From a virus, in IMG/VR virus record IMGVR_UViG_3300045918_000320, positions 17,293-81,292 of that record: 64,000 nucleotides of DNA; one strand, 5' to 3'. Positions 38,040 through 64,000 of the stretch are shown piece by piece. The notes under the pieces were generated by a model. It was not told the origin of the DNA. It saw only the letters and a list, made by a program, of their open reading frames with translations, and searched no databases. Made by a program: the position numbers and the translations under genes. Numbering within the stretch: the stretch's first letter is position 1; every line of letters begins with the position of its first letter.

Positions 38040-38249
38040 ATGAAATGTACTAATAAAGACGATACTTATTTTTTACAAGATAGCAGTAATGATACTTTTA
38101 TTTCGTATTTTGATTCATTAGTAAATATTTTTGGAGAATGGACTCCTCACAAATATGGAGCATTAGGTACTAGAGGCGGATATTGGGGAAACGAAATTAA
38201 AGTGGAGGTTTTTAGATCTCCTCTAATTATAGTAATATTTAAAGGATAA
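38040..38249 (+). CDS. mini-gene family member (SPLIIVIF)
   Basis: C-terminal family motif. Confidence 0.6.
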   Translation: MKCTNKDDTYFLQDSSNDTFISYFDSLVNIFGEWTPHKYGALGTRGGYWGNEIKVEVFRSPLIIVIFKG

Positions 38250-38252
38250 TAA

Positions 38253-38609
38253 ATGAAATTACACGAATTGGCTAAAGAATTAAACACAAAAGCTACAGAA
38301 TTATTAAAAAAAGCTACAGAGCTTAACATGGAAATTAAATCTGTAAATGCTCACGTAAGCTTAGAGGACGAGCAAACTTTAAGAAATGAGTTTGGAATTG
38401 TTGTATCGGGAGGCTCGCTAATTACTCCTATTGCCTTTGTAAGACGTTTAGGATTGGATGCTAACAATATGATGAGATACGAATTAGTTGAAGCTGAAAT
38501 TTGTGAGAATGGATTTGTAGAAATTAAATCTAGAAAAGAATTTAATAGTCGTACCAGAGCATTCCATGAATTAGGATACAAAAATGGTCATTTAGAAATG
38601 GATGTATAA
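38253..38609 (+). CDS. protein with translation initiation factor IF2 N-terminal-like domain
   Basis: MKLHELAKELNTKATELL..EIKS..VSLEDEQTLR matches the IF2_N pattern. Confidence 0.65.
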   Translation: MKLHELAKELNTKATELLKKATELNMEIKSVNAHVSLEDEQTLRNEFGIVVSGGSLITPIAFVRRLGLDANNMMRYELVEAEICENGFVEIKSRKEFNSRTRAFHELGYKNGHLEMDV

Positions 38610-39145
38610 ATGAAATTTATTTGTAATATAGCATCTTTAGTATCTATGTTTATGTTTGTAGGCTGTACAGCAATTTCATTGCTTACAGCTATTAATTTAG
38701 ATTTTGGTGCGAGTATTGGCTATGGACTTTTAGCTGGTGTTCATTTTGTTCTTATGGTAATATTTGGATATATTTCTATAAAAGCTTAGGGAGTTTTTAT
38801 GTGGAAAATTTTGAATAAAAGTAATGGTCAGGAATTAATATTTAAAACTGATAGCGACTTTTGTCAGTGGTATGACAATACACATTTAGCACAATACGAA
38901 AGCTCAGTAGGTGCTATGGATCAAGCTAAAGATCAGCAAAATGGATACTATATAGGTTTAGGATACTATTTAAACTATATTGATATTCCGGATTACGTAT
39001 CCTATCCGCCTAAAAAAGAAGAAACTAAAACTTGTCAGCATCCCAGAAAATATTTAAATAAAATTAGCAATAGTTTAGAATTTATGGTTTGTCCGGATTG
39101 TAAAGAAGAAGTAAAAGAAGAGCCAGTAGTTAATAAAAATACTGG

Positions 39146-40012
39146 ATGGGAATGGGGATTTTGAAACTGTCACACTCTGCTAAAGATCTTTGGAAAACCT
39201 GCAAATACAAATGGCATTTACATTACCAAAAAAGATATCGCTCTGTCAGAGTTAGCTCTGCATTAGCTTTTGGAAATAGCTTTGACTTAGCTTTAAACGA
39301 ATTATTGCTAACTAAAGATTTGCTAAAAGCTGCAGATGTTTTCTGGAATAGCTGGGAAGAATGGAAATATAAACCACTAATTGATTTTTATAAATCTGAT
39401 TTTAATTCAGATTTATTATCCAAATCAGATCTAGACGAAATTCAAGCAGTAGAGGCAGATGCCGATCTACAGGATCATTTATTAAATTGGTACTCACTCC
39501 GAGCTAAAGGTCTTAGGATGCTAGCAGAATATGATCTTCAGATCATGCCTAGCCTAGCTGAGATCATTTCTATTCAAGGAGAGTTTGAAATACCTATCCC
39601 AAATACAGAACACACTGTAGGAGGTAAATTAGATTTAATAGCACGTATTGGAGAACACACTTATATTCTAGATAACAAAACTACTAGTCAGCCTTATGCC
39701 AAAAATAGTTGTCAAACTAAAGAGCAGACAGCTTTATATGCAAGAGGAGTGCCAGAATACGATTCTAATGTAGGATTTTTAACTATAAACAAAAAAGATT
39801 TTAGAACACAAATTTTGTTAGGGCAAGCTCCTAAAGAATTACAAGAATCTGTAATGCAAGATTTTGTATCTATGGCTACAGAAATTGATAATACTACAGA
39901 ATTTGACAAGAATAAAAAAGGATGTTATTCTTTTGGTAGCAAGTGTCAGTTTTATTCGCATTGCTGGGGAGAAGGATTCAGTGAAAACATTTATGAAGCT
40001 GAAAAAGAATAA
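39146..40012 (+). CDS. PD-(D/E)xK exonuclease (RecB/Cas4-like)
   Basis: LSHS..C, GKLDL..ILDNKT, QTALY, C-terminal C..C..C. Confidence 0.8.
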   Translation: MGMGILKLSHSAKDLWKTCKYKWHLHYQKRYRSVRVSSALAFGNSFDLALNELLLTKDLLKAADVFWNSWEEWKYKPLIDFYKSDFNSDLLSKSDLDEIQAVEADADLQDHLLNWYSLRAKGLRMLAEYDLQIMPSLAEIISIQGEFEIPIPNTEHTVGGKLDLIARIGEHTYILDNKTTSQPYAKNSCQTKEQTALYARGVPEYDSNVGFLTINKKDFRTQILLGQAPKELQESVMQDFVSMATEIDNTTEFDKNKKGCYSFGSKCQFYSHCWGEGFSENIYEAEKE

Positions 40013-40203
40013 TGAAAAGAAATAATTTACATAATTATTATACCGCCCACAGATTATCACATGATATACTATATCTATTAAAAGGATATGCACCTTGGAT
40101 TACAGGCACTTATGTAAAGTATTACGGAAAGGAAACTCACTATCTTATAGATATGGTAACAATAGATAATGCAAAATTATTAAGGATTATTTTTGAAATA
40201 TAA
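40012..40203 (+). CDS. mini-gene family member (AKLLRIIF)
   Basis: C-terminal family motif. Confidence 0.6.
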   Translation: MKRNNLHNYYTAHRLSHDILYLLKGYAPWITGTYVKYYGKETHYLIDMVTIDNAKLLRIIFEI

Positions 40204-40372
40204 AAACACAGAATTATATTTTATCTACAGATCAAAACTCCGATACTGTTTTACAGGTTTAAATTACTTATATGATACTTACGAAATATTAAATCTAACA
40301 AATAATGAAAAAATTTTTTTAAATAGAAAAATATTAATATCTCCTATGCTGAGAGAAATTTATGAGTTATAA
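40193..40372 (+). CDS. mini-gene family member, 59 aa (SPMLREIY), not in ORF track
   Basis: TTG start inside previous member's motif; open frame read by hand. Confidence 0.6.
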   Translation: MKYKNTELYFIYRSKLRYCFTGLNYLYDTYEILNLTNNEKIFLNRKILISPMLREIYEL

Positions 40373-40556
40373 ATTAAAAACTAGTGATTTAGTTTGTATA
40401 TTTTGGGATAAAGATTTTGATATAGGATTTTACGTGCATCTAAATAATAAACATTTATATACTAAAAATAGTTCATTTGTTAGCAATTTACCAAAATATA
40501 AAATAGAATTAATAAGTAGTCCTTTACTTAGAGTAATTTACACTGGAGATTTTTAA
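40362..40556 (+). CDS. mini-gene family member (SPLLRVIY)
   Basis: YKLK N-terminus and C-terminal motif. Confidence 0.65.
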   Translation: MSYKLKTSDLVCIFWDKDFDIGFYVHLNNKHLYTKNSSFVSNLPKYKIELISSPLLRVIYTGDF

Positions 40557-40759
40557 AATGGAAAAAGCAATAAAGACTTACAAAATCATAAATGTATTAA
40601 GTATAATATGTTTAGCTATTTGGGCAGCAGCATTTTTATTTTCAAATAAACCTATAGAAACTATTGACAAGATAATAATAGCTATGTTAGTATTTAAGAG
40701 TATTAATTATAATCTAAAAGAAAATGAATTTTTAGATGAGTTTAAACCGGAGGAAAAAA

Positions 40760-41401
40760 ATGAGTAATTTAATTTTTAAGAAAATGTCAGAAGTAATGAA
40801 AGATGTTGGATCTATTGGTAAAGACCAAAAGAATACAGCTCAAGGATTTAAATTCAGAGGTATAGACCAATTTGTAAATGCTTTGTATCCTGCTTTAACT
40901 AAACATGGAGTATTTATGGCTCCTAGATGTGTTAGAGAAGATCACGAAGTAAAAGATGTTACTAGATCTAACGGAAAGGCTGGAGTAGATAAACATGTTA
41001 CTATTATGATGGAATATGATTTCTTTGCTGAAGATGGATCTAAAGTAACTGTAGGGCCAATTCCTGCTGAAGGATTAGATTCTGGGGACAAAGCTACAAA
41101 TAAAGCTTTATCAGCAGCTTTAAAATATGCTTTAATTCAGACTTTCAGTATCCCAACAGAAGATATGGCTGAAGCAGATTTAGAATCTCCAACTATCGGA
41201 CAACAGTTAGTTGGGAATACCGGATTAACTACTATAACTTTAACTGATTCTTCATTTTCAAAAGGAGGAGCTGTATCAGGAAATACTGATGCTCCTCCTA
41301 AAATGACAGCAGCAGCCGCTACAGCAAAAGCAGTTGAGAAAAAAGTTAGTAGTATGCGAAAAGTAGAAGTTAAAAGTAACGATTCAGATTTAGACTTGTA
41401 G
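40760..41401 (+). CDS. ERF-family single-strand annealing protein
   Basis: KN..QGFKFRGID, EGLDSGDKATNKALSAALKYAL. Confidence 0.85.
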   Translation: MSNLIFKKMSEVMKDVGSIGKDQKNTAQGFKFRGIDQFVNALYPALTKHGVFMAPRCVREDHEVKDVTRSNGKAGVDKHVTIMMEYDFFAEDGSKVTVGPIPAEGLDSGDKATNKALSAALKYALIQTFSIPTEDMAEADLESPTIGQQLVGNTGLTTITLTDSSFSKGGAVSGNTDAPPKMTAAAATAKAVEKKVSSMRKVEVKSNDSDLDL

Positions 41402-42154: not shown

Positions 42155-42361
42155 TTGCAAAACGCAAAGAAAACTAGGAAAAAGGGATACTTTTATGTAT
42201 CCTTAGAATATTATAATAGATCATTAAAACGTAAAGTTGAAAATCCAAATAGCTATGACATATATTTTAATGATTATGATAATACTTCTAAATCGTCTAC
42301 ACATTTAGATATTAGAATTTTTTATAAAGGGTTACTAAAAGAAATATTCAAAGGAGTTTAA
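42155..42361 (+). CDS. mini-gene family member (KGLLKEIF)
   Basis: C-terminal motif; start uncertain. Confidence 0.5.
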   Translation: MQNAKKTRKKGYFYVSLEYYNRSLKRKVENPNSYDIYFNDYDNTSKSSTHLDIRIFYKGLLKEIFKGV

Positions 42362-43511: not shown

Positions 43512-43533
43512 TATTTACAACAGGAAAAATTAA

Positions 43534-44706
43534 ATGTCAGTACAACAAGCTATAATAGAATTAATTGTTTCTGGTAATCAATTTTATGCAAGTTTTTTAG
43601 CACAATGTAATAGAAAAATACGTTACGATTTACCAGCTCCGGCTGGTATTTCAGTAACCTCTTCTATTAATTTGTATATTAATCCAACATTATTTGATAA
43701 GTTTACTTTAAAGCAACAACAAGATATTTTAAAGCACGAAATAATGCATTTAATAAACGAACATTGTGGAGTTAAACCTTCAGATGAAAATTTATCAGCA
43801 AAGCAATTAAATATAGCTATGGACTGTGCTATAAACCAATTAGAAGGTATTGAGCAGTCAGTAGATGAGATTGGCGGAGTAACTTTAGAACGCTTTAAAA
43901 AAGCTTGCAGTGAGTTTATAGAACCCGATAGTATCAAGCCTAAAATGGACTTTAGATATTATGGTAGAATTATAAAACAATGTCAGGATAAATTTGACGA
44001 AGAGCAAGCTGGAAAAGAAATAGACGATCACTCCAAAATGGAGAATGATACTGAAGGCGATTCGAGAGAAACTACTTATGGAAAAGAATTCCAAAAGCAA
44101 GTTGTAAAAAATGCTGTAGGTAGAGCTAAAAATGCTGCTGGAAATGTTGGTGGAGATTTACAAAGATTAATTGATCAAATGTTTGCTAGTAAGGTAAACT
44201 GGAAACAGCAATTAACACGGATTGTTTCTAATGCTGTTACAATTAAAAAGACTACTACTAGAACACGTTTAAACAGACGTTACGGATTGATGTCACCCGG
44301 AAAAAAGAAAGATTATGTTCTTAAAGTCGGATATGTTTTAGATACTTCTGGTAGTATGTCTTCTTATAACCTAGCCCAAGGCTGGGGAGAAATTTCTAAA
44401 TTACAATCTCTATTCCCAGAAATGGAAATTATTTTATACGAATGTGATGCAGACGTTCAGCCGGGAAGAAAATTTGATAGGAAATTGAAGCCAGAAGTTA
44501 AAGGTGGAGGAGGAACAGATATGAATCCTGCATTCCAATTAGCTTTAAAAGATGGTGCTGATTTAATTATATGTTTTACAGATGGTGATTTTTACGAAAA
44601 TATAGATAATCCAAATGTACCAGTTATTTTTTGTATCGACGGTAAAAATAGTTATAGCTACCCTTTTGGTAAAGTGTTATGTTTAGGTGAGCATAGAGAT
44701 GGTTGA
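43534..44706 (+). CDS. DUF2201-type metallopeptidase plus vWA domain protein
   Basis: HEIMH..NIAMDCAIN; MIDAS DTSGSM, GGGGT, FTDG. Confidence 0.85.
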   Translation: MSVQQAIIELIVSGNQFYASFLAQCNRKIRYDLPAPAGISVTSSINLYINPTLFDKFTLKQQQDILKHEIMHLINEHCGVKPSDENLSAKQLNIAMDCAINQLEGIEQSVDEIGGVTLERFKKACSEFIEPDSIKPKMDFRYYGRIIKQCQDKFDEEQAGKEIDDHSKMENDTEGDSRETTYGKEFQKQVVKNAVGRAKNAAGNVGGDLQRLIDQMFASKVNWKQQLTRIVSNAVTIKKTTTRTRLNRRYGLMSPGKKKDYVLKVGYVLDTSGSMSSYNLAQGWGEISKLQSLFPEMEIILYECDADVQPGRKFDRKLKPEVKGGGGTDMNPAFQLALKDGADLIICFTDGDFYENIDNPNVPVIFCIDGKNSYSYPFGKVLCLGEHRDG

Positions 44707-44806
44707 TAAATTTATGGACAGTTATGTTGATGAATTTGTCAGGCAATACAGACGTATGAAATATAAAAATAAACCATTAATATATATTATTTACGGATTA
44801 GAATGA
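44699..44806 (+). CDS. mini-gene family member, 35 aa (KPLIYIIYG), not in ORF track
   Basis: open frame read by hand; overlaps both neighbours. Confidence 0.5.
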   Translation: MVDKFMDSYVDEFVRQYRRMKYKNKPLIYIIYGLE

Positions 44807-45087
44807 TTTTAAATACAGACTATTTAGAAAATATTTTTAGAGGTATAGTTCCGGGGCCAGTGATTGTAACTAAAAGTTCTGAGAGAGATGGTTATAGAAT
44901 TTGCATAGTTCATCCGTTCCCTGTATTGCCTTCATATTTTTATATTAATACCATAGAATTACATAGACCAAAATCCGATTTAGTTTATGAATTAGGAATT
45001 AGAGTTAAGTTTAATTCTATATTTAAAAAAGACGTAGAAGCCTTTAAAGCACCATTATTAAAAATTATTTATGGATATAGAGAATGA
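44803..45087 (+). CDS. mini-gene family member (APLLKIIYG)
   Basis: C-terminal motif. Confidence 0.65.
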   Translation: MILNTDYLENIFRGIVPGPVIVTKSSERDGYRICIVHPFPVLPSYFYINTIELHRPKSDLVYELGIRVKFNSIFKKDVEAFKAPLLKIIYGYRE

Positions 45088-45428
45088 TGCAAACTTCCAT
45101 GGACGACTATAACTATGTATCAAAACATTTTGAAGTTGTCCGAAAAAAATATGGCACAGAAATTAACTTCACAATTAGCCCTATAGTAAACGAAAATTCT
45201 CAGCCTTGTATAATTAGTTTTTATACTTTAGTTACTGATTATTTCGGGTATATGGATTTTATATCTTTAGAGGGTATAGAATTGTGGGAAATGCTTGACA
45301 AAGTAAAGGTAATGAATTATGCTCTTACTGTGATGATTCGCAAAGCATTATTTAATTATGGAATAAAGGGATTAAAAGGAGAGAGATTATCCAAAACTCC
45401 TTTATTGAGATTAATTTATGAAGTATAA
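45084..45428 (+). CDS. mini-gene family member (TPLLRLIYE)
   Basis: C-terminal motif. Confidence 0.65.
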   Translation: MMQTSMDDYNYVSKHFEVVRKKYGTEINFTISPIVNENSQPCIISFYTLVTDYFGYMDFISLEGIELWEMLDKVKVMNYALTVMIRKALFNYGIKGLKGERLSKTPLLRLIYEV

Positions 45429-45663
45429 ATTTCCCGGAGAGTATATTGAGTTACTACACGAAGAAACTGGATTAATAGAATGTCTAAATTGGTATGTAAA
45501 AAATGACGATCATCAGTTTTTACTTCTTGACAATATAAGAGATGTTAATTTACTGGCAGTATGGACAGATTTACTAGATTCTAGAATTTTAGCAGGAAAA
45601 TTGTTACCAATAATATTAGGAGAGGAATATGTATCAGAGATTTACAGAAACGCAAAAAGATAA
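45418..45663 (+). CDS. mini-gene family member (GKLLPIILG)
   Basis: motif; its Gly-Glu codons form the SD of the primase-helicase. Confidence 0.55.
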   Translation: MKYKFPGEYIELLHEETGLIECLNWYVKNDDHQFLLLDNIRDVNLLAVWTDLLDSRILAGKLLPIILGEEYVSEIYRNAKR

Positions 45664-47581
45664 AGGTTTATTAGTTCCAGTAGGGACTGATGTATACAAA
45701 TTAATGCGTAACGCTAACAAAGATTATTACACTTCATTTTATAGATATAACGATGAGCACAAAAAAGAATTCGATGCTAAAGGTTCTGTAGCTGGATTTA
45801 AAGGTGTTGTATCTGATTTGCTACCTTGGGATTTCGACAATGAATCAGATCCATCTATTGCTCAAGCAGATGCTTTAGAAATGGTTTACCGGCTAAAGAA
45901 AGACGGATACAAAGAAGAGAATATTAGAATATTTTTTTCAGGTATGAAAGGATTTGAGGTATCAGTACCTATTTCAGAATTGCTTACTCCGGCTGAATTA
46001 AAAAATGTATGTTTAAATTATGCGGAAGGATTAAAAGCTGATACTAGTGTTTATAACGATACTAGAATATTCAGATTACCATTTACTAAACACAATAAAT
46101 CTGGACTATATAAAATTCCTTTAACACTGGAACAATTAGAATCTCTCAGTATTTCAGAAATTAGAGATGAAGCTAAAAGTATAGAAGGATTTGATAAGCA
46201 TGAGATATTAGCAGCTTATAAACCAGCTAAACTTACAGAAAAAATGAGACAATTTAAAGCTAAAACTCCAGAAGTAAAAGTTACTAGAGAATTATTAGAA
46301 TCTATTAGTTTAGAAAATATCGATTGGGGAAAGAAGCCTAGAGATTTAACTCACGAAAAATATTTACTATCTTTAGGTTATTTCTCGCAAGGAAATCGTA
46401 GCGAGGCTTTAATTATTTTAGCAGCTACTTTAAAAAATTTAGGATGGAATGAAACTCAGGTATACTATGCTTGTAAAGCTGCAGCCGATTTACAGGCTAG
46501 CCGAACAGGCGAAGATAAATTTCCTAAAAATGAAATATACAAAAATATTATTGAGCAAGTCTTTGGGCCGAATTGGAAAAATGGTAGCTATTCTGTAAAA
46601 GATAATTCTTTATTGCAGCAATTATCTCTATTAGTTCCGGCTGAAGTGAGAATGACTTCTTCTGAGGATAATATTGTATCTATTACTGAATCTTTTGGAT
46701 CTTTCAGTAGCTATGCAAAAGAAATTGATAAAAATACTATTAAGTTTGGAATAGCCCCTTTAGACGAAAAATTAGTGATGCAGACAGGAAGACTTTACGG
46801 TATTCTAGCAGCTCCGGGAGTCGGTAAGACTACTTTTGGAGTAGACGTTTTAAGAAATACTTCTTTAAATGGTGAGCTTAGTATGTTTGCCAGCTATGAC
46901 ATGTCTTGTCCAGACGTTATTCAAAAATTAATTCAAAAACATAGCCGATTAAAAGCTAAAGATATTTACGCAGCTTTTAGGGATAATGATACAAAACAAA
47001 TAGAAAAATTCTATAAAATGTTAGATGAGAATTACAAAAATGTTACCTTTATTTTTAAAACTGGACAAACTATAGATGATTTAAAGAAATCTATTATTGA
47101 AAGGGAAAAACAATTAGGAGCACCTATTCGGTTAGTAGTAGTAGATTATTTAGAGTTAATTCAATCTAAATTTTCAGATCCTACTCAGGCTAGTATGGAG
47201 TCGATACAAGGACTTAGAGAAATAGCTGTAGGGATGAATAAAGCAGTTATTGTAATGCTTCAGCCGAGTAAAATGGGTACTAGTATAGACGAGCCTATTA
47301 CGTCTTATTCTGCCAGTAAAGGTAGTTCTAGTATTGCCCAAGCAGTTACAGCTATGCTTACTTTACACAGACCGGGATGCAGCTCTAGGACTCCAGAGAA
47401 TGATAATTATATTGGTATAGATTGTGTAAAAAATAGAAGTGGTGGATTATTTAGTTTAGATTTACATTTTGACGGAGCTACAGGAAATATTAGAGCTTTG
47501 GAAACTATTGAAGCTATGACATTGCAGGAATTGCGAGAAGCTAAAAGACAGCAGCATCAGGACGAGGATAGTTTATTTTGA
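45629..47581 (+). CDS. primase-helicase (AEP-like primase plus DnaB/SF4 helicase)
   Basis: WDFD, FFSGMKGF, RIFRLP; AAPGVGKT, VVVDYLE, KNRSG. Confidence 0.85.
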   Translation: MYQRFTETQKDKGLLVPVGTDVYKLMRNANKDYYTSFYRYNDEHKKEFDAKGSVAGFKGVVSDLLPWDFDNESDPSIAQADALEMVYRLKKDGYKEENIRIFFSGMKGFEVSVPISELLTPAELKNVCLNYAEGLKADTSVYNDTRIFRLPFTKHNKSGLYKIPLTLEQLESLSISEIRDEAKSIEGFDKHEILAAYKPAKLTEKMRQFKAKTPEVKVTRELLESISLENIDWGKKPRDLTHEKYLLSLGYFSQGNRSEALIILAATLKNLGWNETQVYYACKAAADLQASRTGEDKFPKNEIYKNIIEQVFGPNWKNGSYSVKDNSLLQQLSLLVPAEVRMTSSEDNIVSITESFGSFSSYAKEIDKNTIKFGIAPLDEKLVMQTGRLYGILAAPGVGKTTFGVDVLRNTSLNGELSMFASYDMSCPDVIQKLIQKHSRLKAKDIYAAFRDNDTKQIEKFYKMLDENYKNVTFIFKTGQTIDDLKKSIIEREKQLGAPIRLVVVDYLELIQSKFSDPTQASMESIQGLREIAVGMNKAVIVMLQPSKMGTSIDEPITSYSASKGSSSIAQAVTAMLTLHRPGCSSRTPENDNYIGIDCVKNRSGGLFSLDLHFDGATGNIRALETIEAMTLQELREAKRQQHQDEDSLF

Positions 47582-47787
47582 AGACAAATGATAATAGATA
47601 TGTCTATTTTTTCACTTATAGTAATGAATCTATAGTGTCTATGTTTTTTGAATGTCAAGAGGAAGATATTAATAGTAATACTTGCTTTAAAAGAAAAGAA
47701 ATTGAAGAGCAAAGAGAGGATTACGATATCTATTTACATTATAAAGCAATACAAAGCCCTTTATTAAAAGCTATTTTGGAAGAATAA
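47578..47787 (+). CDS. mini-gene family member (SPLLKAIL)
   Basis: C-terminal motif. Confidence 0.6.
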   Translation: MKTNDNRYVYFFTYSNESIVSMFFECQEEDINSNTCFKRKEIEEQREDYDIYLHYKAIQSPLLKAILEE

Positions 47788-48008
47788 TGAAATATAAAAA
47801 AGATAAAGTTTGTAGATATAAATTTGTATATTCTAAAGATATTATACAATCTTTGCGAGACTCTATAGACATTACTGGATTTGAAAGTAGTTTAGACTTG
47901 CATTTATATAGAACTGAAGAAATTTACAAAGAAAATAATTACGAAAGTTTTATTAATCATAATGCTCTAATTGCACCTTTATTTAGAATTATTTTAGGAG
48001 AAAAATGA
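47787..48008 (+). CDS. mini-gene family member (APLFRIILG)
   Basis: C-terminal motif. Confidence 0.6.
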   Translation: MKYKKDKVCRYKFVYSKDIIQSLRDSIDITGFESSLDLHLYRTEEIYKENNYESFINHNALIAPLFRIILGEK

Positions 48009-48631: not shown

Positions 48632-48949
48632 ATGAAACTTTGTAAATCTTGTAATTTAATTACTTCAGATTTTGGCAAAAATAAAGCTAGAAAAGATGGA
48701 CTTAGTTTTTACTGTAGACCTTGTAACCGAAAATTAGAACAAATTAGTATCTCTAAATTATCTAATAAAAAAAATAAACAAGTAGTAGTTAGCTTTGAAA
48801 AAAACTGTCAGAATTGTAATTGGAATTTTGGCGGTAAATGCGTAGTAAAAAATCCCGGACAAATTACAGAAATAGAAAATGATAATATCTGTCATAAATT
48901 TGAAAGATTTGTGGAGAGAGAAATTGACATTGCCGAGTTACATTCATGA
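48632..48949 (+). CDS. zinc-finger protein
   Basis: CKSC..F.KN..RKDGL..YCRPC. Confidence 0.55.
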   Translation: MKLCKSCNLITSDFGKNKARKDGLSFYCRPCNRKLEQISISKLSNKKNKQVVVSFEKNCQNCNWNFGGKCVVKNPGQITEIENDNICHKFERFVEREIDIAELHS

Positions 48950-49167
48950 AAATTAAAAACTCAATACTATTGCAATTGTGGGATCTTTCTTTTTTATTAA
49001 GATGTTCAACGTATTCCGTACCTTATGCTTTGGATTATCATATGTATGTTTATGATTTTGTAGGAGATACTTATGCCTGTAGTCCTATAACTTATTTAGA
49101 AATAAAACAACTACAAAACTGTACCCTTTTAGGAATTATATATGGAAAAGAATTATCAAATAATTAA
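48946..49167 (+). CDS. mini-gene family member (CTLLGIIYG)
   Basis: motif; its Tyr-Gly codons contain the PolA ATG. Confidence 0.55.
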   Translation: MKIKNSILLQLWDLSFLLRCSTYSVPYALDYHMYVYDFVGDTYACSPITYLEIKQLQNCTLLGIIYGKELSNN

Positions 49168-56089: not shown

Positions 56090-56733
56090 TGTTAATTGGA
56101 ATATCGGGAATTAAAAGAAGTGGAAAAGATACAATAGCTAATGTTTTAATAAAAGACTTTGGCTTTAAGAAAATAGCTTTTGCCGATAAATTAAAAGATA
56201 TCTGTGCTAGAGTATTCGATTTACCTGTATCTGTGTTTCATAGAGATGATTTTAAAGATATGGTGTTTGAAGCACCAGTAATTATAGATGTTGAGCACAT
56301 TAAGAATCTGGTTACTTTGCTAGAGGAGTATACTAGTATCCCAAATGATGCCTACAATGCGTTAATGTCTACAGGATGTAGCAAAACGCTTTATTCACCG
56401 AGAGAAATCTTACAATTCGTAGGGACGGATTTATGCCGAAACTGCGTCAATGATTCGATTTGGCTCGACATCTTTAATTCTATAGTAAAAAATACTGAAG
56501 GTCATGTTGTTGTTTCAGATGCTAGATTTACTAATGAAAGAAATTTAATTAAAAGTTTAGGCGGAACAAATATTCTTGTATCACGTTCTAATTTAAATAA
56601 TAAAGATTCTCACGCTTCTGAAAATGATTTAGGGGATGAGTCTAGTTACGATGTTCATGTAAAAAATGACACTACTAAGGAAAAACTAGAGCATGATATT
56701 CAAATGTGGTATACACTTAGAACAGCTAGATGA
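56089..56733 (+). CDS. deoxynucleoside monophosphate kinase
   Basis: GIKRSGKDT, FADKLK, PREILQFVGTD, DARFTNE, HASE. Confidence 0.88.
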   Translation: MLIGISGIKRSGKDTIANVLIKDFGFKKIAFADKLKDICARVFDLPVSVFHRDDFKDMVFEAPVIIDVEHIKNLVTLLEEYTSIPNDAYNALMSTGCSKTLYSPREILQFVGTDLCRNCVNDSIWLDIFNSIVKNTEGHVVVSDARFTNERNLIKSLGGTNILVSRSNLNNKDSHASENDLGDESSYDVHVKNDTTKEKLEHDIQMWYTLRTAR

Positions 56734-56942
56734 AATTAAAACCTGCAGATCACGTTGCTAGTAATATTTTAGGATTTCCTCAAATTAAATTTTATAGAGA
56801 GCAGTTAAAAAAGTATCCTCTAAAAGGTTCTAAAGTAATTTATTTGCAATATAGGAATTTAATAAGACCTAGCGTATACGATAATAATATTAATTTAAAA
56901 ATGCTGGAAAGCGAATTAATTAAAATATTGGTGGGATTTTGA
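56730..56942 (+). CDS. mini-gene family member (SELIKILVG)
   Basis: MKLKPAD N-terminus, degenerate C-terminal motif. Confidence 0.5.
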   Translation: MKLKPADHVASNILGFPQIKFYREQLKKYPLKGSKVIYLQYRNLIRPSVYDNNINLKMLESELIKILVGF

Positions 56943-57200
56943 AACATAGAAAATTAAAAGAAGGTGATTGGGCTTGGTGCTTATCTCCAGAAGCTACTAA
57001 TATATTATATCATGACGATATAGATACTGCCATGGATTCTACCAGTATGCGATCAAGAGACTTGATGACTACTTGTCAAGAACATAATCAATATAATGAA
57101 ATAGAAGATCCAGATGATTGGTGGGGAATATTTAGTTAAAGTTGATATATTTAAGTCACCATTAATTCACCTAATAGCAGGATATAAAATTGAAGGGTAA
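56939..57200 (+). pseudogene. frameshifted mini-gene family member
   Basis: KLKEGD N-terminus; removing one G from GGGG at 57123-57126 restores ..VDIFKSPLIHLIAG. Confidence 0.55.
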
Positions 57201-57495
57201 TAAAAAATCTAAAAGTGAAGTCGAATACTGGAGAGGAAAATACAAGGAATTATTAAGTGAAAATAAAAGGTTAAAGAAAGATTTAAAAAGATTAAAAAAT
57301 GTAGATTACGAATTTGAAGAGTTTAAAGACGCATTTGAAGATTTTTCAGAAGAAAAAGTAACAAAACGAAAAGAAAACTTGTGTCAAAACTGTATGCGTG
57401 GTAAACTAGTTTCCGTAGATATTCCGGGAAACAGAGTAGTTAGATTATGTAAAATATGCGGTAATAGGGAAACAAAAAGTGAAGATGGGATTTAA
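57190..57495 (+). CDS. coiled-coil plus zinc-ribbon protein
   Basis: ENKRLKKDLKRL; CQNC..CKIC. Confidence 0.6.
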   Translation: MKGNKKSKSEVEYWRGKYKELLSENKRLKKDLKRLKNVDYEFEEFKDAFEDFSEEKVTKRKENLCQNCMRGKLVSVDIPGNRVVRLCKICGNRETKSEDGI

Positions 57496-57588
57496 ACGAA
57501 AAGAACAAAATCATTTCGGCTGTTGGTTACGAATATATAAATCTCCGCTAATGTGTATAATTTATAATAGGGAAACAAAAAGTGAAGA
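57462..57588 (+). repeat. 24-bp direct repeat flanking a mini-gene
   Basis: TAATAGGGAAACAAAAAGTGAAGA at 57462-57485 and 57565-57588. Confidence 0.85.
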
Positions 57589-57595
57589 GATCTAA
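57485..57595 (+). CDS. mini-gene family member, 36 aa (SPLMCIIY), not in ORF track
   Basis: MGFKRKEQNHFGCWLRIYKSPLMCIIYNRETKSEEI. Confidence 0.5.
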   Translation: MGFKRKEQNHFGCWLRIYKSPLMCIIYNRETKSEEI

Positions 57596-57818
57596 TTACG
57601 ATTATGTATTTGGAGTTGGCGGAGAACATTGGGATATGAGCCACTGTATTGAAGAATTATTCTATAATAAGTATAATAACAATTATTTTTATATAGCAAC
57701 TGAGCGTAATAGTCTAGACGAATTAAATTATATAAAAGAAGCTACTTGGAATTCTCCATTAATAAATATAATTTACGATTTAAAAGATAAGAGAGCTTTA
57801 CGTGATACACAAAAATAG
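57582..57818 (+). CDS. mini-gene family member (SPLINIIY)
   Basis: motif near C-terminus. Confidence 0.6.
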   Translation: MKRSNYDYVFGVGGEHWDMSHCIEELFYNKYNNNYFYIATERNSLDELNYIKEATWNSPLINIIYDLKDKRALRDTQK

Positions 57819-58347: not shown

Positions 58348-58600
58348 AATTGATAGAGGACTTTACCAGTGCGAATTATGTGTAAAAGGTAAACTTACTC
58401 GCTATTCAGATATGCAAATTGACCATACTGAACCGGCAGTACCATTAACTGGCTGGGAAAGCTTTGACAGCTTTATAGAGCGTTTATTTGTACCTGTAGA
58501 GGGACTACGTGCCATTTGTAAGCCACACCATGAAGAAATAACTAAAGGTCAGACTGAAATACGAAAAACTAATAGAAAATTAAAAAAGATAAAAAAATGA
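58256..58600 (+). CDS. HNH-type endonuclease
   Basis: YQCELC..QIDHTEP..LRAICKPHH. Confidence 0.75.
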   Translation: MDSKKKATVISLLRRAWMRSKERSECLKRAKIDRGLYQCELCVKGKLTRYSDMQIDHTEPAVPLTGWESFDSFIERLFVPVEGLRAICKPHHEEITKGQTEIRKTNRKLKKIKK

Positions 58601-58779
58601 AAAGAACTAGTCATACTTCTTATTATTTTTTCGACCATCCTTCTGATATTATTCCGGTAATTCGCAAACTAGATTCTTATAAGAATGTGACTAGACGCTT
58701 AGGTGGATGGGCATATTACATAAAAGATATTGCTATTAACGCTCCTTTACTTCAGGAGATTTTTAAAGTTGAAAGCTAA
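58597..58779 (+). CDS. mini-gene family member (APLLQEIF)
   Basis: C-terminal motif. Confidence 0.6.
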   Translation: MKRTSHTSYYFFDHPSDIIPVIRKLDSYKNVTRRLGGWAYYIKDIAINAPLLQEIFKVES

Positions 58780-58963
58780 AGATACAAAAAAATATTGTCA
58801 AGTGTGTGAATTTGACGATTTACAATATTGGACAAATTACGATGAATTGGAAGGCTCCACTTACCAGCACCATTTAGCACAATCTGATTTCGAAACTGTT
58901 ATTTTAGATATAGATATTTTTAAAAGCATAATGCTAAAACTAATTTTTAGAGGTATAAAATGA
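58769..58963 (+). CDS. mini-gene family member (SIMLKLIF)
   Basis: TTG start after AGGAG inside the previous member's motif. Confidence 0.55.
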   Translation: MKAKDTKKYCQVCEFDDLQYWTNYDELEGSTYQHHLAQSDFETVILDIDIFKSIMLKLIFRGIK

Positions 58964-59235: not shown

Positions 59236-59725
59236 AGTATTATTTCTATTTATTTTAGCTTCTGTAATTCAGTGTAGCAGTATTGTTAGATATAGATTTG
59301 GCGAAAAGCCTAGTCCTAAATTAGACGAGTATTTAGCTATGTTTCACGAAGAAATGGATAAACGAGATGTACATTTAGATTACAGAAATATTAGCCTTAG
59401 ATTTACTAATAAATTATCTCATGATAACTATGTTGCCGTATCTTATCCTTTTGTTAAATATCGTTTTGTAGACGTTCTGAGGGGTTATTTTGACCATGCT
59501 CCAGCCGAGGAGAGGGAAGCTATAGTAGTACACGAATTAGGGCATACATTTGGTTTAAAGCATTTAGACGATATGCAATTTTTGTATCCTTTTGCTAAGT
59601 TTTGCCCAATTTCTGTAATGCATTCCTATAGTAATTTGCAAGGATGTTATTTTTCTCAAAGAGAGCAATATTTTAACGAATTAGCTTTTAGAATAAAAAA
59701 ACTTGACGGATCTATAGAAATTTGA
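59219..59725 (+). CDS. exported matrixin-like Zn metalloprotease
   Basis: signal peptide; HELGHTFGLKH; SVM Met-turn. Confidence 0.75.
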   Translation: MKMLSRVLFLFILASVIQCSSIVRYRFGEKPSPKLDEYLAMFHEEMDKRDVHLDYRNISLRFTNKLSHDNYVAVSYPFVKYRFVDVLRGYFDHAPAEEREAIVVHELGHTFGLKHLDDMQFLYPFAKFCPISVMHSYSNLQGCYFSQREQYFNELAFRIKKLDGSIEI

Positions 59726-59768
59726 TATACTATTGTTTTAGGCGGATAAACCGCTAATAGGAGATTTA

Positions 59769-60542: not shown

Positions 60543-60545
60543 GAG

Positions 60546-60569
60546 AAGGAGCTTCGGCTCCTTTTTTTT
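60546..60569 (+). terminator. intrinsic terminator
   Basis: AAGGAGC-TTCG-GCTCCTT plus T-run. Confidence 0.85.
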
Positions 60570-60779
60570 ATGTATAAACATTACAAATTAATAGAAGGTG
60601 ATTATATAAACTGGATTATGCCAGATGAATATCAGTATTCTTTAAGAGCGGATGTATTAAGTGAAGCTTGGGATACTAGATACGAAATATATTATAATGA
60701 TTCGGATGGAGATCCTCTAATTAAAAATAATATGATGAAAGGTAAACTTTTAAGGATAATTTATGGAAACGAAAACTAA
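60570..60779 (+). CDS. mini-gene family member (GKLLRIIYG)
   Basis: motif; alignable over full length with 62030..62230. Confidence 0.65.
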   Translation: MYKHYKLIEGDYINWIMPDEYQYSLRADVLSEAWDTRYEIYYNDSDGDPLIKNNMMKGKLLRIIYGNEN

Positions 60780-61209
60780 AATAATTATAGTAATTGTAGC
60801 AATAGCTTTAGGATTTGGAGCTGGATATTTTGCTAAACCCTCGTCCGTTAGGACGATCACCGTGGAAAAAATAATAAAAGAACAGTCTAAAGCTGAAGTA
60901 CAAACAAGAATTATTTATAAAGAAAAAACTGTAAAGCCTGATGGAACAGTTACAGAAATTGAAAAAACAGATAATAGTAATTCTAGTACAGATATTACAA
61001 AAATTAATAATGAAAAAAGTACTAGCCAAACTATAAAAAATGATATAGGATTAAATATATCAGCTTTAGCAATAGCTAATAGCAGTAATATTACAGGAAC
61101 TAGGGAGTATGGAATACATATTTCTAAAAGAGTGATTAGTAATATTACAGTAGGTGCTTTTGCTGATACAGAAAAGAAAATAGGAGTTAGCATTGGAATC
61201 AATTTCTGA
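60763..61209 (+). CDS. membrane-anchored protein (possibly spanin-like)
   Basis: N-terminal TM, C-terminal beta strands ending in Phe. Confidence 0.45.
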   Translation: METKTKIIIVIVAIALGFGAGYFAKPSSVRTITVEKIIKEQSKAEVQTRIIYKEKTVKPDGTVTEIEKTDNSNSSTDITKINNEKSTSQTIKNDIGLNISALAIANSSNITGTREYGIHISKRVISNITVGAFADTEKKIGVSIGINF

Positions 61210-61861
61210 GTTATTTAAACATAAATATAGAATATTGCTTTATTTAGATCATAATCCAGAACCTATTCTCGGAGTTAAGTATTTATGTATTAGGGGAATA
61301 GACGGAGATTTAGTTTTTGAAAAACGTAAATTTTACTTATTAAAAATGCCATTATTAAATTTAGTGTTTGGAGTTTAAATGTCTCACGTATACACTGTAC
61401 CTGCTGCATTTAATTGGAGTACATATTCTACTGCTTTAATGTTTGTTAGACATACAAATCCTTGTGCTGCACAGAATTTATCCTTTCTATTTACAAGAAA
61501 ATCAGAACTAAAGAGTAAACTTAAGTTAACTTCTCATAGAATAATTTATACTCAATTGGGAGAAGAATTTACTTTAGATTTGTGTTTATTAAATTACAAA
61601 TTACTAGATATTATTTTTGAAGGTTAAATGTTTATACATTATTATAAATCTATAAATTTACCTACTAGAAGATTTTTTGGAATAGAAACTTCAGAAGATA
61701 TTAAAAATTTAATATTATGGAGTACTAAGGAAGAGTACATTAAATCTGCCGGATTTAAAGTTGATGTAAGTAATAAATTTGATAGTGATTTTAGAAATCG
61801 AATAAAAGTTCAAGTTATATTTGGAGAACTTCTACACTTAATATATTTGGGGGAAAAATGA
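61193..61861 (+). CDS. three tandem mini-gene family members (61193..61378, 61379..61627, 61628..61861)
   Basis: end in MPLLNLVFG, YKLLDIIFEG and GELLHLIYLG. Confidence 0.6.
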
Positions 61862-62029
61862 AAATTGGAGATATTTTTTTAGATAAAAAATCTAATGATT
61901 TATTAATATTTTCTGGTGCTATGTGCGTAAATGAATTTAGAAAAGCTGCCTACTATTTAAAATTTGAAACTAAATATGGAGCTTTTCTTTACCTATCTTT
62001 AGATTCCGCAAAAGAAACTTTAGAGGTAA

Positions 62030-63147
62030 TTGGTGCATTATAAATTAGAAAATGCTGAAGGTATTTTTGTATATATGCCTAGTGAATTTTCTCAATTAAA
62101 AAGTGATGTTTTAGATGAGCGTTATGATAGAGATGTTACGTATTATCACAACAAAATATATGGCTCTACTTATATAATAAAATCAGAAGCTATACAATCT
62201 ACCCTTTTAAGGATAATTTATGAATTTTAAAACTAAGAATAAAATGGCATTTTTTTCTATTAGAGATTTAAAAAGATATATTATTGCTCCATACGGTAGA
62301 TTATTTACTATACGTCCCTATACTGGTTATGCCATAACTTCTGAAATACTTCAAGGACAATTACTAAAAATAATTTATGCCTAAATATCATTATAAAATT
62401 AACATGGGAAATCTTGAAGAAATAATGTACAAAATTGTATCTATAAATTCCTCTCCAAATTGTATTAAAAAAGCTATAGGATTGTCAGCAGAAAATATTG
62501 GAGTAATTTCAGACTTTAATGCTAGTTTAATTTTAAAAGCTGTATTCCGTAGTAAATTAATTAAGGCTATATATGGCTAAATTAAAATATGGAGATAAAG
62601 TGTGGGTATTTAGATACAATATGACTATTAGGTATGCCTTATTGTATCCTTATAACTACAGTATCTACGGAAAATATATGTTAGTTTCACCTTGGAATAT
62701 GGTTAAGTTTGAAGCTATTTGTTCACCTCTAATGAAGGCTATTTATGACTAGACCTAAAATAAATTACAATACTATATGTAGAGTGCTACTTTATAGTAT
62801 GCCTCTTAGAAATGGTTTTCACTATTCTCCAAGACCTTATTCTGAAAAATGGAGTCCTACTTTAATGGGAAAAAGAGTTAGAGTACTTAAAAATAAAATA
62901 TTTGCTTCTCCTTTAATTATGGAAATTTATGACTAGATACAAATTAAAATTAGGGGATAAAGTGCATAGATTATTTTGCATAGAAAATTTTAAATATGTA
63001 GATGATAATTTTTTATCTGATACTGAATTTAAAGGAGAGGATGCAGAACCAGATAGCCTTTTAATTTTTAAACATGAATTTTATAGAGCATCTTTACTGA
63101 GAGAAATATTTGGATATAAAGAAATTATACGAATTGGCAAGATCTGA
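62030..63147 (+). CDS. six tandem mini-gene family members (62030..62230, 62220..62384, 62377..62580, 62573..62752, 62745..62936, 62929..63147)
   Basis: STLLRIIY, GQLLKIIY, SKLIKAIY, SPLMKAIY, SPLIMEIY, ASLLREIF; each start after the first lies inside the previous motif. Confidence 0.7.
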
Positions 63148-63377
63148 GGATACTGAAGAAGACAGATTACAGTCAGTTTACGAATTTATTAAAAAAAATG
63201 AATTAAATAAAGGTTTTTCCCGAAAACCTATTGACTTTTTTTATTTTTGGTATACAATAGGCCATACAAATGACATTACGTTACAAGAGTTTCGTAAAGC
63301 ATTTCCACAAGGCCCTTTTGTTTATTTCAGCATGGATAAGCTGAATATTCCCAAGGAAGAATTCGGGAGAATAAATT

Positions 63378-63830
63378 TTGAATACGAGCGTCAAAAAGCA
63401 GAAAAGAAACGGAAAAAACTCCGTAACAAAAAGAAGTCTATCAAAGTATCCCTATCTAAACCCAAAAATGAATACACGGATTAGGCAAGAGTATTTAGAT
63501 GCGGATTATTTAAATAAGCTATCAGATACAGAATTAGAATTCCTAAATCAATTTTATAAAGAACATTATAATGCTAGTATAGGTAAAGCTGAAGGTGACT
63601 TGGATGGATACCTTTTAGATGTATCAAATCCTAAAGTTCGTAAAGAATTATACCGAGAAAATAATGCTAGAAATAGAGATGTATTTTCTTCTGGAAAAGC
63701 TACGGGTACTTTAATTTATTTAGATAATGTAACTTTGGAAGAAGTTATTGAGGCTAAACAGTATACTGAAGTAGATCATTTTGAAACTGCTATGTCTGAA
63801 TTAATTAAAGGCGAAGATGAAGAGGATTAA
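63378..63830 (+). CDS. hypothetical protein
   Basis: 150-aa ORF; start uncertain. Confidence 0.55.
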   Translation: MNTSVKKQKRNGKNSVTKRSLSKYPYLNPKMNTRIRQEYLDADYLNKLSDTELEFLNQFYKEHYNASIGKAEGDLDGYLLDVSNPKVRKELYRENNARNRDVFSSGKATGTLIYLDNVTLEEVIEAKQYTEVDHFETAMSELIKGEDEED

Positions 63831-64000
63831 GTTAAAAAAAGTAATATTTTGTAACTTAGATGAAGACTCTTTATTTATTATAAAATTTTACACTAGAAAT
63901 GTATATTTAGCTTTTGATATAGATGAATTAAATTTAGATATAGATAGAAAATATATTCTAGATATTAAAGTTTCAGAAGCACCATTATTACGAATATTAT
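63817..64000 (+). CDS. mini-gene family member truncated by window end (APLLRIL)
   Basis: MKRIKLKK..DIKVSEAPLLRIL open to the window edge. Confidence 0.55.
   Translation, partial: MKRIKLKKVIFCNLDEDSLFIIKFYTRNVYLAFDIDELNLDIDRKYILDIKVSEAPLLRIL

Follow-up and report, generated by a model that had tools for sequence, protein, structure and literature searches.

Why should 29 small proteins of one phage, whose bodies can hardly be aligned with each other, end in nearly the same residues? The question is raised by a stretch of 64,000 nucleotides (nt) of the IMG/VR record IMGVR_UViG_3300045918_000320, called here the window, which corresponds to bases 17293-81292 of an 81,292-bp contig whose ends repeat 127 bp and which IMG/VR classes as complete, with direct terminal repeats. 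The G+C content of this genome is ~30%, and from ~22 kb to the end of the window the genes of the plus strand are tightly packed. Scattered among them are small open reading frames (ORFs) that carry, at or near the C-terminus, the motif [SAG]-[PK]-L-[LIM]-x-x-I-[YF], to which we refer as the tail. An earlier note on this DNA had read the tail as a constant docking helix attached to variable heads, or the genes as a selfish, expanding micro-gene family. The reading that we favour, and which sequence comparison makes fairly probable, is that the window set is a strongly diverged local branch of a widespread family of small phage proteins, in which the tail would be part of the framework of one, probably SH3-like, fold, and the members would be related binders.

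A common C-terminal motif on 29 small genes

A hidden Markov model (HMM) of 17 columns (10 residues before the first Leu of the motif, then L-L-x-x-I-[YF]-x) was trained on 27 ORFs chosen by eye from ORF lists, and then applied to every one of the 1,906 six-frame stop-to-stop segments with at least 20 amino acids (aa) that the whole 81,292-bp contig contains. The training ORFs score 12.3-23.0 bits, and two pieces on which the model had not been trained were also found (57105-57197 with 16.3 bits, and the ORF starting at 63817, which runs across the contig junction, with 14.3 bits), for a total of 29 members, 28 intact and 1 frameshifted; the best non-member segment reaches 9.0 bits, and the best segment of the minus strand 8.1 bits. 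All 29 members lie on the plus strand between positions 38031 and 64000 of the window, so that both the count of about 29 plus-strand mini-genes given in the earlier note and its statement that none occurs before 38 kb hold. Their lengths range from 38 to 114 aa with a median of 68, which agrees with the upper end of the range in that note (35-114 aa) and corrects its lower end; altogether the 29 ORFs take up 5,958 nt, or about 7% of the genome. The motif matched by the HMM ends 0-13 residues from the stop codon in each member, and the 17 conserved residues have the pattern of an alternating beta-strand that leads, by way of a Ser/Ala-Pro helix cap, into an amphipathic helix of two turns.

We have examined the sensitivity of this count by leaving out each training ORF in turn: 22 of the 27 members still score at least 10 bits, and five are borderline, namely 48946 (7.2), 56730 (7.4), 61193 (6.1), 61379 (8.8) and 61628 (8.5), members being designated throughout by their first coordinate. 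Twenty mononucleotide shuffles of the genome gave in total 22 matches of at least 9.9 bits, that is 1.1 per genome versus the 29 observed, and in two complete related phages of comparable A+T content the HMM maxima are 8.7 and 7.3 bits, which corresponds to zero members.

When the last 17 residues are removed, pairwise BLAST comparison of the remaining bodies is no better than in 20 shuffles, except for the pair 60570/62030 (30.4 bits; 40% identity over 63 aa, E 2e-10), and iterative searches among the bodies link this same pair only; the earlier impression that the bodies are unalignable is thus correct for all but one pair. All 29 bodies score best in the coding frame, and their G+C content is 27.0%, versus 32.3% in the large genes. 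Tyr has a median share of 8.7% in the members, whereas in 28 other small ORFs on this strand, all of them non-members, the value is 4.1% (p 1.5e-7); for aromatic residues the corresponding figures are 17.6% and 8.8% (p 2e-8). At the N-terminus the pattern K-[LI]-x(2-3)-[GSA]-D occurs in 6 of 30 ORFs (8 of 30 with a looser pattern) and in none of the 28 non-members: the beginning (Y)KLKxGD that the earlier note attributed to many of these proteins is therefore real, but is confined to 6-8 of the 30. By their composition, the bodies appear to be coding sequence of one class and not a random collection.

The lack of any recognized named family, also remarked upon in that note, was borne out by database searches. 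Pfam and PHROGs scans of 10 of the 29 members gave nothing above chance, and solved structures gave no match to members. An alignment of window members (A1) returned only 4 of the window's own proteins in a word-indexed search of 5.8 billion proteins, and only 9 of them in a full HMMER scan of 1.84 billion representatives; the longest member (45084) found no homologue but itself among the 5.8 billion proteins, tblastn of member 62030 against 50,697 phage records gave no match at E <=10, and the ESM Atlas had no usable match for the window family. A DNA pattern of the window type matched 62 loci in IMG/VR once each, and none of them with several tails.

Judged by the family A DNA polymerase (PolA), the nearest cultured phage is Flavobacterium phage immuto (41%). 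Uncultured relatives reach 56-70% over the whole PolA protein, and one 306-residue metagenome fragment 80%; the two complete relatives (84,509 and 82,265 bp; G+C 35.6 and 36.3%) have values of 68% and 56%. Members are absent from seven IMG/VR loci, eight metagenome loci, the two whole relatives and the first 50 kb of the 160 kb of immuto, all of them related by PolA, and the member bodies have no homologue in these relatives (best E 0.033). Directly before PolA in relative G002 (locus L005, 9697-9981) there is a 94-residue ORF, unscored by every model, in which SEIVTAPLSEAKEE precedes an extension of 15 residues; this ORF may be what is left of a member in a genome that is otherwise without them.

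The members are listed below, together with one doubtful ORF and a pair of repeats, as coordinates in the window, strand and description, followed by the score with the full HMM and with the leave-one-out (LOO) model.

38040..38249, +, member, 69 aa, end SPLIIVIFKG; 16.9 bits, LOO 16.1
40012..40203, +, member, 63 aa, end AKLLRIIFEI, directly 3' of the PD-(D/E)XK nuclease gene; the next start, TTG at 40193, lies in the Phe codon; 15.8 bits, LOO 14.3
40193..40372, +, member, 59 aa, end SPMLREIYEL; 19.7 bits, LOO 19.4
40362..40556, +, member, 64 aa, beginning MSYKLKTSD (N-terminal motif), end SPLLRVIYTGDF; 18.6 bits, LOO 18.1
42155..42361, +, member, 68 aa, end KGLLKEIFKGV, before the MoxR-type AAA+ gene; 14.3 bits, LOO 10.3
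44687..44806, +, short member, 39 aa, end KPLIYIIYGLE; 17.6 bits, LOO 10.0
44803..45087, +, member, 94 aa, end APLLKIIYGYRE; 22.1 bits, LOO 26.5
45084..45428, +, longest member, 114 aa, end TPLLRLIYEV; 12.7 bits, LOO 12.9
45418..45663, +, member, 81 aa, GKLLPIILG 14 residues from the stop, before the helicase gene; 12.3 bits, LOO 12.7
47578..47787, +, member, 69 aa, end SPLLKAILEE, first of two directly 3' of the helicase gene, in the same slot as two members of contig L114; 16.5 bits, LOO 15.8
47787..48008, +, member, 73 aa, end APLFRIILGEK; 15.8 bits, LOO 13.6
48946..49167, +, member, 73 aa, end CTLLGIIYGKELSNN; the PolA start (49142) lies in the Tyr-Gly codons; 13.7 bits, LOO 7.2, borderline
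56730..56942, +, member, 70 aa, beginning MKLKPAD (N-terminal motif), end SELIKILVGF; 13.4 bits, LOO 7.4, borderline
56939..57200, +, frameshifted member, head 56939-57139 (beginning LKHRKLKEGD) and tail in another frame, 57105-57200 (ending KVDIFKSPLIHLIAGYKIEG); tail 16.3 bits, untrained
57462..57485, +, left copy of a perfect 24-bp direct repeat (ribosome site, GTG start, two codons); in 500 pairs of control windows no run longer than 12 bp is shared
57479..57595, +, minimal member, 38 aa, ending WLRIYKSPLMCIIYNRETKSEEI, between the two perfect 24-bp repeats; 23.0 bits, LOO 14.4
57565..57588, +, right copy of the 24-bp direct repeat
57582..57818, +, member, 78 aa, SPLINIIYD 13 residues from the stop, best match of the related-family models (E 0.03-0.04); 20.7 bits, LOO 17.8
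58597..58779, +, member, 60 aa, end APLLQEIFKVES; 16.8 bits, LOO 14.2
58730..58963, +, member, end SIMLKLIFRGIK; the true start is likely TTG 58769, 9 nt after AGGAGA; 14.0 bits, LOO 10.3
60570..60779, +, member, 69 aa, beginning MYKHYKLIEGD, end GKLLRIIYGNEN, first gene 3' of a terminator-like hairpin; 20.4 bits, LOO 21.5
61193..61378, +, member, 61 aa, end MPLLNLVFGV; 15.3 bits, LOO 6.1, borderline
61379..61627, +, member, 82 aa, end YKLLDIIFEG; 15.1 bits, LOO 8.8, borderline
61628..61861, +, member, 77 aa, end GELLHLIYLGEK; 13.8 bits, LOO 8.5, borderline
61858..62043, +, doubtful member, 61 aa, beginning MKIGDIF, end AKETLEVIGAL; its first residues can be aligned with the N-terminal block of the related family; no motif match with the HMM
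62030..62230, +, member, 66 aa, end STLLRIIYEF; 22.6 bits, LOO 25.9
62220..62384, +, member, 54 aa, end GQLLKIIYA; 17.7 bits, LOO 16.2
62377..62580, +, member, 67 aa, end SKLIKAIYG; 15.3 bits, LOO 16.8
62573..62752, +, member, 59 aa, beginning MAKLKYGDKV, end SPLMKAIYD, modelled with AlphaFold (see below); 20.2 bits, LOO 15.9
62745..62936, +, member, 63 aa, end SPLIMEIYD, with a 13-bp junction repeat at 62741 and 62925; 19.2 bits, LOO 18.1
62929..63147, +, member, 72 aa, beginning MTRYKLKLGDKV, ASLLREIFG 11 residues from the stop; 15.7 bits, LOO 12.4
63817..64000, +, member crossing the end of the window, its final residues APLLRILFDVTE being encoded at the very beginning of the circular contig; 14.3 bits for the first 141 bases there, untrained

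The two frames of the frameshifted member (56939-57200) meet at a run of G near 57121-57125; an error of assembly, a copy that is no longer functional and programmed frameshifting could each account for the change of frame. Both this site and the 24-bp duplication are covered by a single metagenome run only, the probable source of the sequence.

Protein-level selection and double coding

In 11 of the 29 members the start of the next gene falls within the Tyr/Phe codon of the motif plus one base, and this raises the question of whether the motif is a by-product of gene packing, in which the ribosome region, Shine-Dalgarno sequence and start of the next gene are read in the frame of the upstream one. 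Part of the ending does behave in this way. The third residue of the helix is R/K (AGG, AGA, AAA, AAG) in 9 of the 11 overlapping members versus 7 of the 18 others (Fisher p 0.052), and the arrangement is like known translational coupling, with a Shine-Dalgarno sequence and a start inside the upstream gene, in that AGG/AGA/AAG stands two to three codons 5' of the start in these 11 of 29 members. In the non-overlapping members the G/E/K-G that follows Tyr/Phe is, as read by eye, encoded by purine-rich, ribosome-site-like bases (GGA, GAA, AAAGGA), 6-26 nt (mostly 9-17) 5' of the next start. The tail codons thus double as ribosome-binding site and start of the next gene, and this explains in part the R/K and the Tyr-Gly/Glu/Asp ending. 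Coupling differs from what is seen here in that it accounts for the R/K and the residues after Tyr/Phe only, and neither for S-P-L-L..I-Y nor for the strand that precedes it.

The core [SA]-P-L-L-x-x-I-[YF] and the strand are in fact unchanged with or without start overlap: a model built from the 18 non-overlapping members scores 10 of the 11 overlapping ones at 11 bits or more, and the reverse model, built from the 11 overlapping members, scores 12 of the 18 others at 10 bits or more. The codons of the core follow the usage of the genome. TTA is used for the first Leu of the motif in 18 of 26 cases versus 16.0 expected (p 0.41), and for the second in 9 of 19 versus 11.7 (p 0.21), with TTA, CTT, CTA, CTG and TTG all in use in genome-like shares; the Ser before Pro is encoded by TCN in 7 cases and by AGY in 5 (p 0.53 versus the genome share), and, where the next start is outside the motif, Tyr is encoded by TAT and TAC three times each. 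No RNA structure is conserved, as RNAalifold finds no consensus and single folds are no more stable than shuffles (mean z +0.34). The other overlapping junctions in this genome, and all the junctions of the two A+T-rich relatives, give no match. Since both classes of Ser codon are used, the Leu codons are genome-like, the Tyr codons are mixed and the two models recognize each other's members, selection on the tail acts at the protein level, which is what the earlier note had concluded from the variation among TTA, CTA, CTT and TTG. Double coding with the ribosome site and start of the next gene is real but partial, and appears to shape only the internal R/K and the G/E after the motif; as a full explanation gene packing is largely refuted, and we consider it very improbable. 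The possibility that the Ser-Pro codons form an anti-Shine-Dalgarno element was dropped, as Lys (AAA) replaces Pro in 5 members and the use of Pro codons is ordinary.

Selection at the protein level could also act in cis, if the last residues worked as a nascent peptide in the ribosome tunnel, on termination or re-initiation, with the bodies as spacers. The tail is always by the stop, 0-26 nt (mostly 0-17, again as read by eye) 5' of the next start, the body sequences are unconstrained, and a Pro is conserved, which would fit such a role. We regard it nevertheless as very improbable, because open frames of ~60 codons with a Tyr-rich make-up, needless for a spacer, are kept in a genome of 30% G+C, because the distance between motif and stop varies among members from 1 to 14 residues, and because the related family described in the next section is conserved throughout, N-terminus included.

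A related family in other phages

A better preserved set of such genes was found, through a search of species genomes with PolA, in contig 167 of G006, which is circular (89,370 bp, 99-bp end repeat, 41.5% G+C), belongs to a 0.9-Mb metagenome-assembled genome and encodes a PolA 45% identical to that of the window. Depending on the pattern, 17-21 small ORFs of its plus strand end in ELExhY-x-[ST]-P-L-[YWFLG]-[KQE]-A-L-[KL]-stop, where Pro is encoded by each of its four codons, and Leu and Ala by a mixture. These proteins have mutual identities of 28-38% over their full length (E 1e-5 to 1e-8), and 13 of them, with N-termini of the type MSKFKVGDRVV, form alignment A3. A second example is L114, a 44,345-bp IMG/VR contig with 25 members within 29 kb; the genomic context of the database relatives was examined for these two contigs. 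The A3 profile finds 101 proteins at E <=1e-3 in the collection of 5.8 billion, none of them with a Pfam domain; many are on contigs of 80-130 kb, often several per contig, those with a name are nearly all 'hypothetical protein', and the 30 that were inspected all show both conserved ends. DNA patterns of this type were less productive in IMG/VR: one gave 0 loci, a looser one matched at 18 loci that all lack a tail match, and the pattern for YNSPLYQAL matched only the 44-kb contig.

In general, it can be seen that the family consists of proteins of 60-90 aa, present in many copies, singly or in runs between replication genes. An alignment of 60 sequences shows no variation at D, S, P and L and very little at K, G, V, Y, A and L, against free variation in the middle; of the 19 ORFs listed, 17 have exactly one residue between the end of the tail and the stop. 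No description of such a family was found in the literature, and the string SPLYQAL is absent from the papers searched, supplementary files and subscription journals being outside that search. From its sequences, MSKFKVGDRVV...ELExVYNSPLYQAL[LK] thus appears to define a widespread phage family for which neither a curated entry nor a description was found.

The window set resembles this family in size, copy number and gene slots, in a C-terminal strand followed by [ST]-P-L-x-x-A/x-[LI], and, for a subset of members, perhaps in the N-terminal block K-x-K-x-G-D-x-V. It differs in that its tail reads L-L-x-x-I-[YF]-[GED] and is one to few residues longer, in that the N-terminal block is present in only 6-8 of the 30 ORFs and is absent or decayed in the others, and in that its bodies cannot be aligned with each other or with the family. 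The tail of the window, [SAG]-[PK]-L-[LIM]-x-x-I-[YF], is a variant of the strand and [ST]-P-L-x-x-A-[LI] ending of the related family. The tail model of the relative ranks the 27 member tails of the window above 454 other tails (Mann-Whitney p 2e-12; top score 10.8 versus 4.5), and the reverse comparison, of the window model on the relative, gives p 1.5e-5. Among 12 window segments that match full-length models at E <10, members number 7 with the A3 model and 8 with a model of 106 sequences; members being ~30 of the 1,906 segments, this enrichment among weak matches is significant. Finally, hhalign places ELELEAVYNSPLYQAL on NMVKFEAICSPLMKAI in register (E 0.0047).

The slots occupied by the genes are also shared. 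By Pfam, the other genes of the plus strand encode a PD-(D/E)XK nuclease, ERF recombinase, MoxR-type AAA+ protein, DUF2201 vWA/metallopeptidase, DnaB-like helicase, ThyX, PolA, HNH endonuclease, RNase H-like exonuclease, dNMP kinase, a Zn-metallopeptidase-like protein and a ClpP-like protease. The window, G006 contig 167 and L114 all have members beside the PD-(D/E)XK nuclease, one member directly before PolA, and a run of them before the HNH/ClpP-like genes; in the window and in L114, two members follow the helicase directly. In addition, the ERF protein of the window (40736-41401) is 78-79% identical to those of G006 contig 167 (22458-22928) and L114 (3866-4318), two phages whose PolA is only 45-47% identical to that of the window, and it has no homologue in the two complete relatives that are closer by PolA (68% and 56%); from this distribution, the replication arm of the window phage is a mosaic and has history in common with the family-bearing phages. 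Since the tail models recognize each other's sequences, the slots are the same, and a subset of members has an N-terminal block of the same type, we consider it likely that the window members are homologous to the MSKFKVGDRVV...SPLYQAL[LK] family.

With regard to the fold, the matches of the related family are to small barrels. In Pfam they include Phage_ProQ_C_like (PF24203; 6e-4), Tudor_5 (0.0017), SH3_12, SH3_13, DUF1918, DUF4314 and UBE2O SH3-C, the best score being 20.8 bits for a gathering cut-off of 27; in the PDB, YdhK (4mdw; 0.008), ribosomal L24 and PsaE, also below threshold; and in PHROGs a part of Dda-like helicases which we take to be their SH3 domain. The likeness to SH3-like and Tudor-like barrels extends over the first ~55-60 residues, starting with the F-K-V-G-D-x-V-V hairpin; the difference is that the SPLYQAL helix is covered by no match. 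As the PsaE alignment extends to the ELE..Y strand and stops there, the SPL helix would lie after the last strand of the barrel. Elsewhere in the window, at 28798-29133 and thus outside the region of the members, a 111-residue ORF matches positions 2-62 of the related-family model weakly (E 0.046) and without the tail; it may be another SH3-like protein.

The in-register match to an alignable family, the common slots and the sub-threshold SH3-like matches together make it more plausible that the tail is part of the framework of one fold than that it is a free element. According to this reading the 29 ORFs would be real, translated genes and would represent a strongly diverged and locally expanded branch of a phage protein family of ~65-80 residues that in less diverged phages has about 20-25 copies per genome. 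The 17 constant residues would most likely be the last beta-strand of a small, probably SH3-like barrel and a short closing helix, which Ser/Ala-Pro would cap at one end and, in many members, Gly at the other, and whose hydrophobic face (L, L/Y, I/L, Y/L) may pack on the barrel. With the ends of the chain as constant framework and the middle free to change, each genome would carry a set of related small binders with different surfaces, probably accessory early or middle proteins directed at host or phage macromolecules, while their genes keep to fixed positions among the replication genes, linked with those on either side through stop and start codons that overlap.

Several observations weigh against this reading. 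None of the comparisons between window and related family is significant alone (best E 0.039 with A3 and 0.03 with the 106-sequence model, for ~2,000 segments), the hhalign probabilities are 1.8% and 7.4%, and each tail model gives <10 bits on most members of the other genome. The two complete relatives closest by PolA (68% and 56%) are without any members, and the family would therefore have been lost there or acquired by exchange. The SH3-like matches of the related family are all below curated cut-offs, and the 10 window members scanned with Pfam have no SH3-like or Tudor-like match. AlphaFold models of two window members, with predicted local distance difference test (pLDDT) scores of 75.7 (62573) and 64.6 and thus of middling to low confidence, are of mixed helix and strand with no clear barrel, and the model of 62573 has no match in the PDB (VIA-align, Foldseek) or BFVD (best Z 2.2). 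The members of 38 and 39 residues are too short for a barrel. In the secondary-structure summary of both models the C-terminus is, however, a strand, a short turn and a helix.

The tail as a possible docking label

The docking helix of the earlier note should be weighed at this point. What stands of that proposal is that the motif is real, that it is under selection at the protein level, and that it is attached to highly variable bodies without a curated family; what is not supported is the notion of unrelated heads on a free helix found only here, since the tail matches the end of a widespread, alignable family. In a form that is compatible with common descent, the tail would be an address or docking label gripped by one partner of phage or host origin (for example a protease, an AAA+ machine, a polymerase or a clamp), with the bodies as cargo or specificity heads. 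Such a role would agree with the position of the tail, always C-terminal and close to the stop (one residue from it in the related family, with the exceptions given above), with the invariant S-P-L and nearly invariant Y, A and L next to a free middle, and with the 38-residue member, which is hardly more than a tail. The same conserved positions are, on the other hand, those needed by the fold of a capped amphipathic helix (Ser-Pro cap, hydrophobic face, Gly end), and the N-terminal strand is conserved as well in the related family, as expected of a framework.

Phages do offer precedents for terminal peptides that are read by one partner. The capsid-targeting sequence of T4 is located at the N-terminus, is cut off by the prohead protease, and serves to load proteins into the capsid. 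It is like the tail in being a short constant terminal peptide on highly diverse small phage proteins, the internal proteins (PMC3012670). It differs from the tail, which is C-terminal, has 17 residues with secondary structure and belongs to genes of the replication arm; no N-terminal cleavage motif was sought. A second precedent, described in PMC2988020, is that of T4 gp43, gp55 and gp33, whose interchangeable C-termini bind the clamp and are hydrophobic and acidic, on a flexible linker. Here the likeness is a short hydrophobic C-terminal motif, common to different proteins and read by one hub; the difference is that the window phage has no clamp of either type (no match to PF02916 or PF00712 at E <=1 in the complete genome), and that its tail is basic to neutral and follows a beta-strand. 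In bacteria the clamp-binding consensus is QL[SD]LF, which was not seen in the window tails. Tails of HbYX-type activators have hydrophobic-Tyr-X as their last three residues, and were rejected as a model because only 4 of the 28 intact members (62220, 62377, 62573 and 62745) end one residue after the Tyr, the rest extending 2-14 residues further.

No partner for the tail was found. The MoxR/DUF2201 pair was considered as its reader and discarded, as the pair is present also in both complete relatives, which lack the family, and the DUF2201 gene in particular is kept there. The MoxR-type AAA+ and DUF2201 (vWA and putative metallopeptidase) genes, at 42363-44706, share only 27-33% identity with those of the two complete relatives, and in relative G001 they are located elsewhere in the genome. 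On balance we consider a docking label unlikely. A bolder version of it, which we mention as a tentative idea of equally low standing, is that the S-P-L-Y-x-A-L / S-P-L-L-x-x-I-Y helix is a handle for one partner, and that a clade of 80-130-kb phages carries 20-30 small SH3-like adaptors per genome, whose variable barrels would seize different targets of host or phage origin and deliver them to a single hub such as a protease or AAA+ machine; if true, these phages would encode a library of adaptors for which there is as yet no description.

Growth of the set, its surroundings and its meaning

The largest group of members is the block at 60570-63147, in which 12 members and the doubtful ORF 61858 lie between the ClpP-like gene and another gene that are adjacent in relative G001. 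Six consecutive members within this block are joined by an identical ...ATT TAT G junction. At 57462-57588 perfect 24-bp repeats, which contain the ribosome site, GTG start and first two codons of the downstream gene, bracket a 79-bp insert that encodes the minimal member of 38 residues and has no other copy in the genome. A long flanking repeat of this kind is present in only 1 of 30 ORFs, while the other 29 share 6-13 bp. Growth by local duplication and recombination at a shared junction fits these observations best.

The same observations have some bearing on the suggestion that these are selfish or mobile micro-gene cassettes, spreading for their own sake, in which the tail supplies a ribosome site and start for the downstream gene so that insertion or duplication does not break the coupling. 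The insert between perfect repeats, without a donor copy, would be consistent with such cassettes, as would the 13-bp junction repeat that flanks 62745 and the placement of the 60570-63147 block between genes adjacent in G001. The claim of a selfish expanding family comes down, however, to the one member of 30 with a flanking 24-bp duplication, the 6-13 bp shared in the other 29 lying inside the range of the controls (up to 12 bp) or barely beyond it. The genes checked included neither a transposase nor an integrase, and slots that are conserved between distant phages fit old residents better than recent jumps. We therefore judge mobile cassettes improbable.

A few features of the surroundings are worth recording. 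Of the two proteins encoded at 59219-60542, one is small and Zn-metallopeptidase-like (HELGH) and the other is the ClpP-like protease; each starts with a hydrophobic, signal-like stretch, as if exported. The two are kept in relative G001, and their position is in the early arm, not in the head module. A terminator-like hairpin (60546-60569; 7-bp stem, TTCG loop, then eight T), with AAGGAG inside its 5' arm, separates the ClpP-like gene from the ATG of member 60570; it was not listed by a consensus scan. Directly before the HNH endonuclease gene, at 51471-51500, there is a perfect TTGACA-18-TATAAT promoter-like site with a TG extension, and purine-rich ribosome sites precede many starts. Because of these signals, the sequence suggests a host that uses sigma-70-type promoters and Shine-Dalgarno sequences. 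This usage is not known to be typical of Bacteroidota, and contrasts with the nearest cultured PolA being that of a Flavobacterium phage. As to occurrence, a pond metagenome run contains 44001-64000 in full with zero differences and may be the source, a wetland run from a separate study contains 44001-51193 and 62665-64000, also with zero differences, and a third wetland run contains two short identical pieces.

Overall, about 7% of the DNA of this phage is devoted to one family without a database name, a better preserved form of which fills the replication arm of related phages. The window set is best seen, on present comparisons, as an extreme variant of this widespread, undescribed family of small proteins. 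That proteins so unlike each other end alike would follow best from extreme divergence within one fold, together with tail DNA that serves a second time as the start region of the next gene. The less diverged relatives (alignments A3 and A4) provide an alignable entry for structural and binding work that the unalignable copies of the window cannot offer. With its constant ends, changing middle, high copy number and fixed slots, the family is a strong candidate for a diversified set of binders directed against the host.

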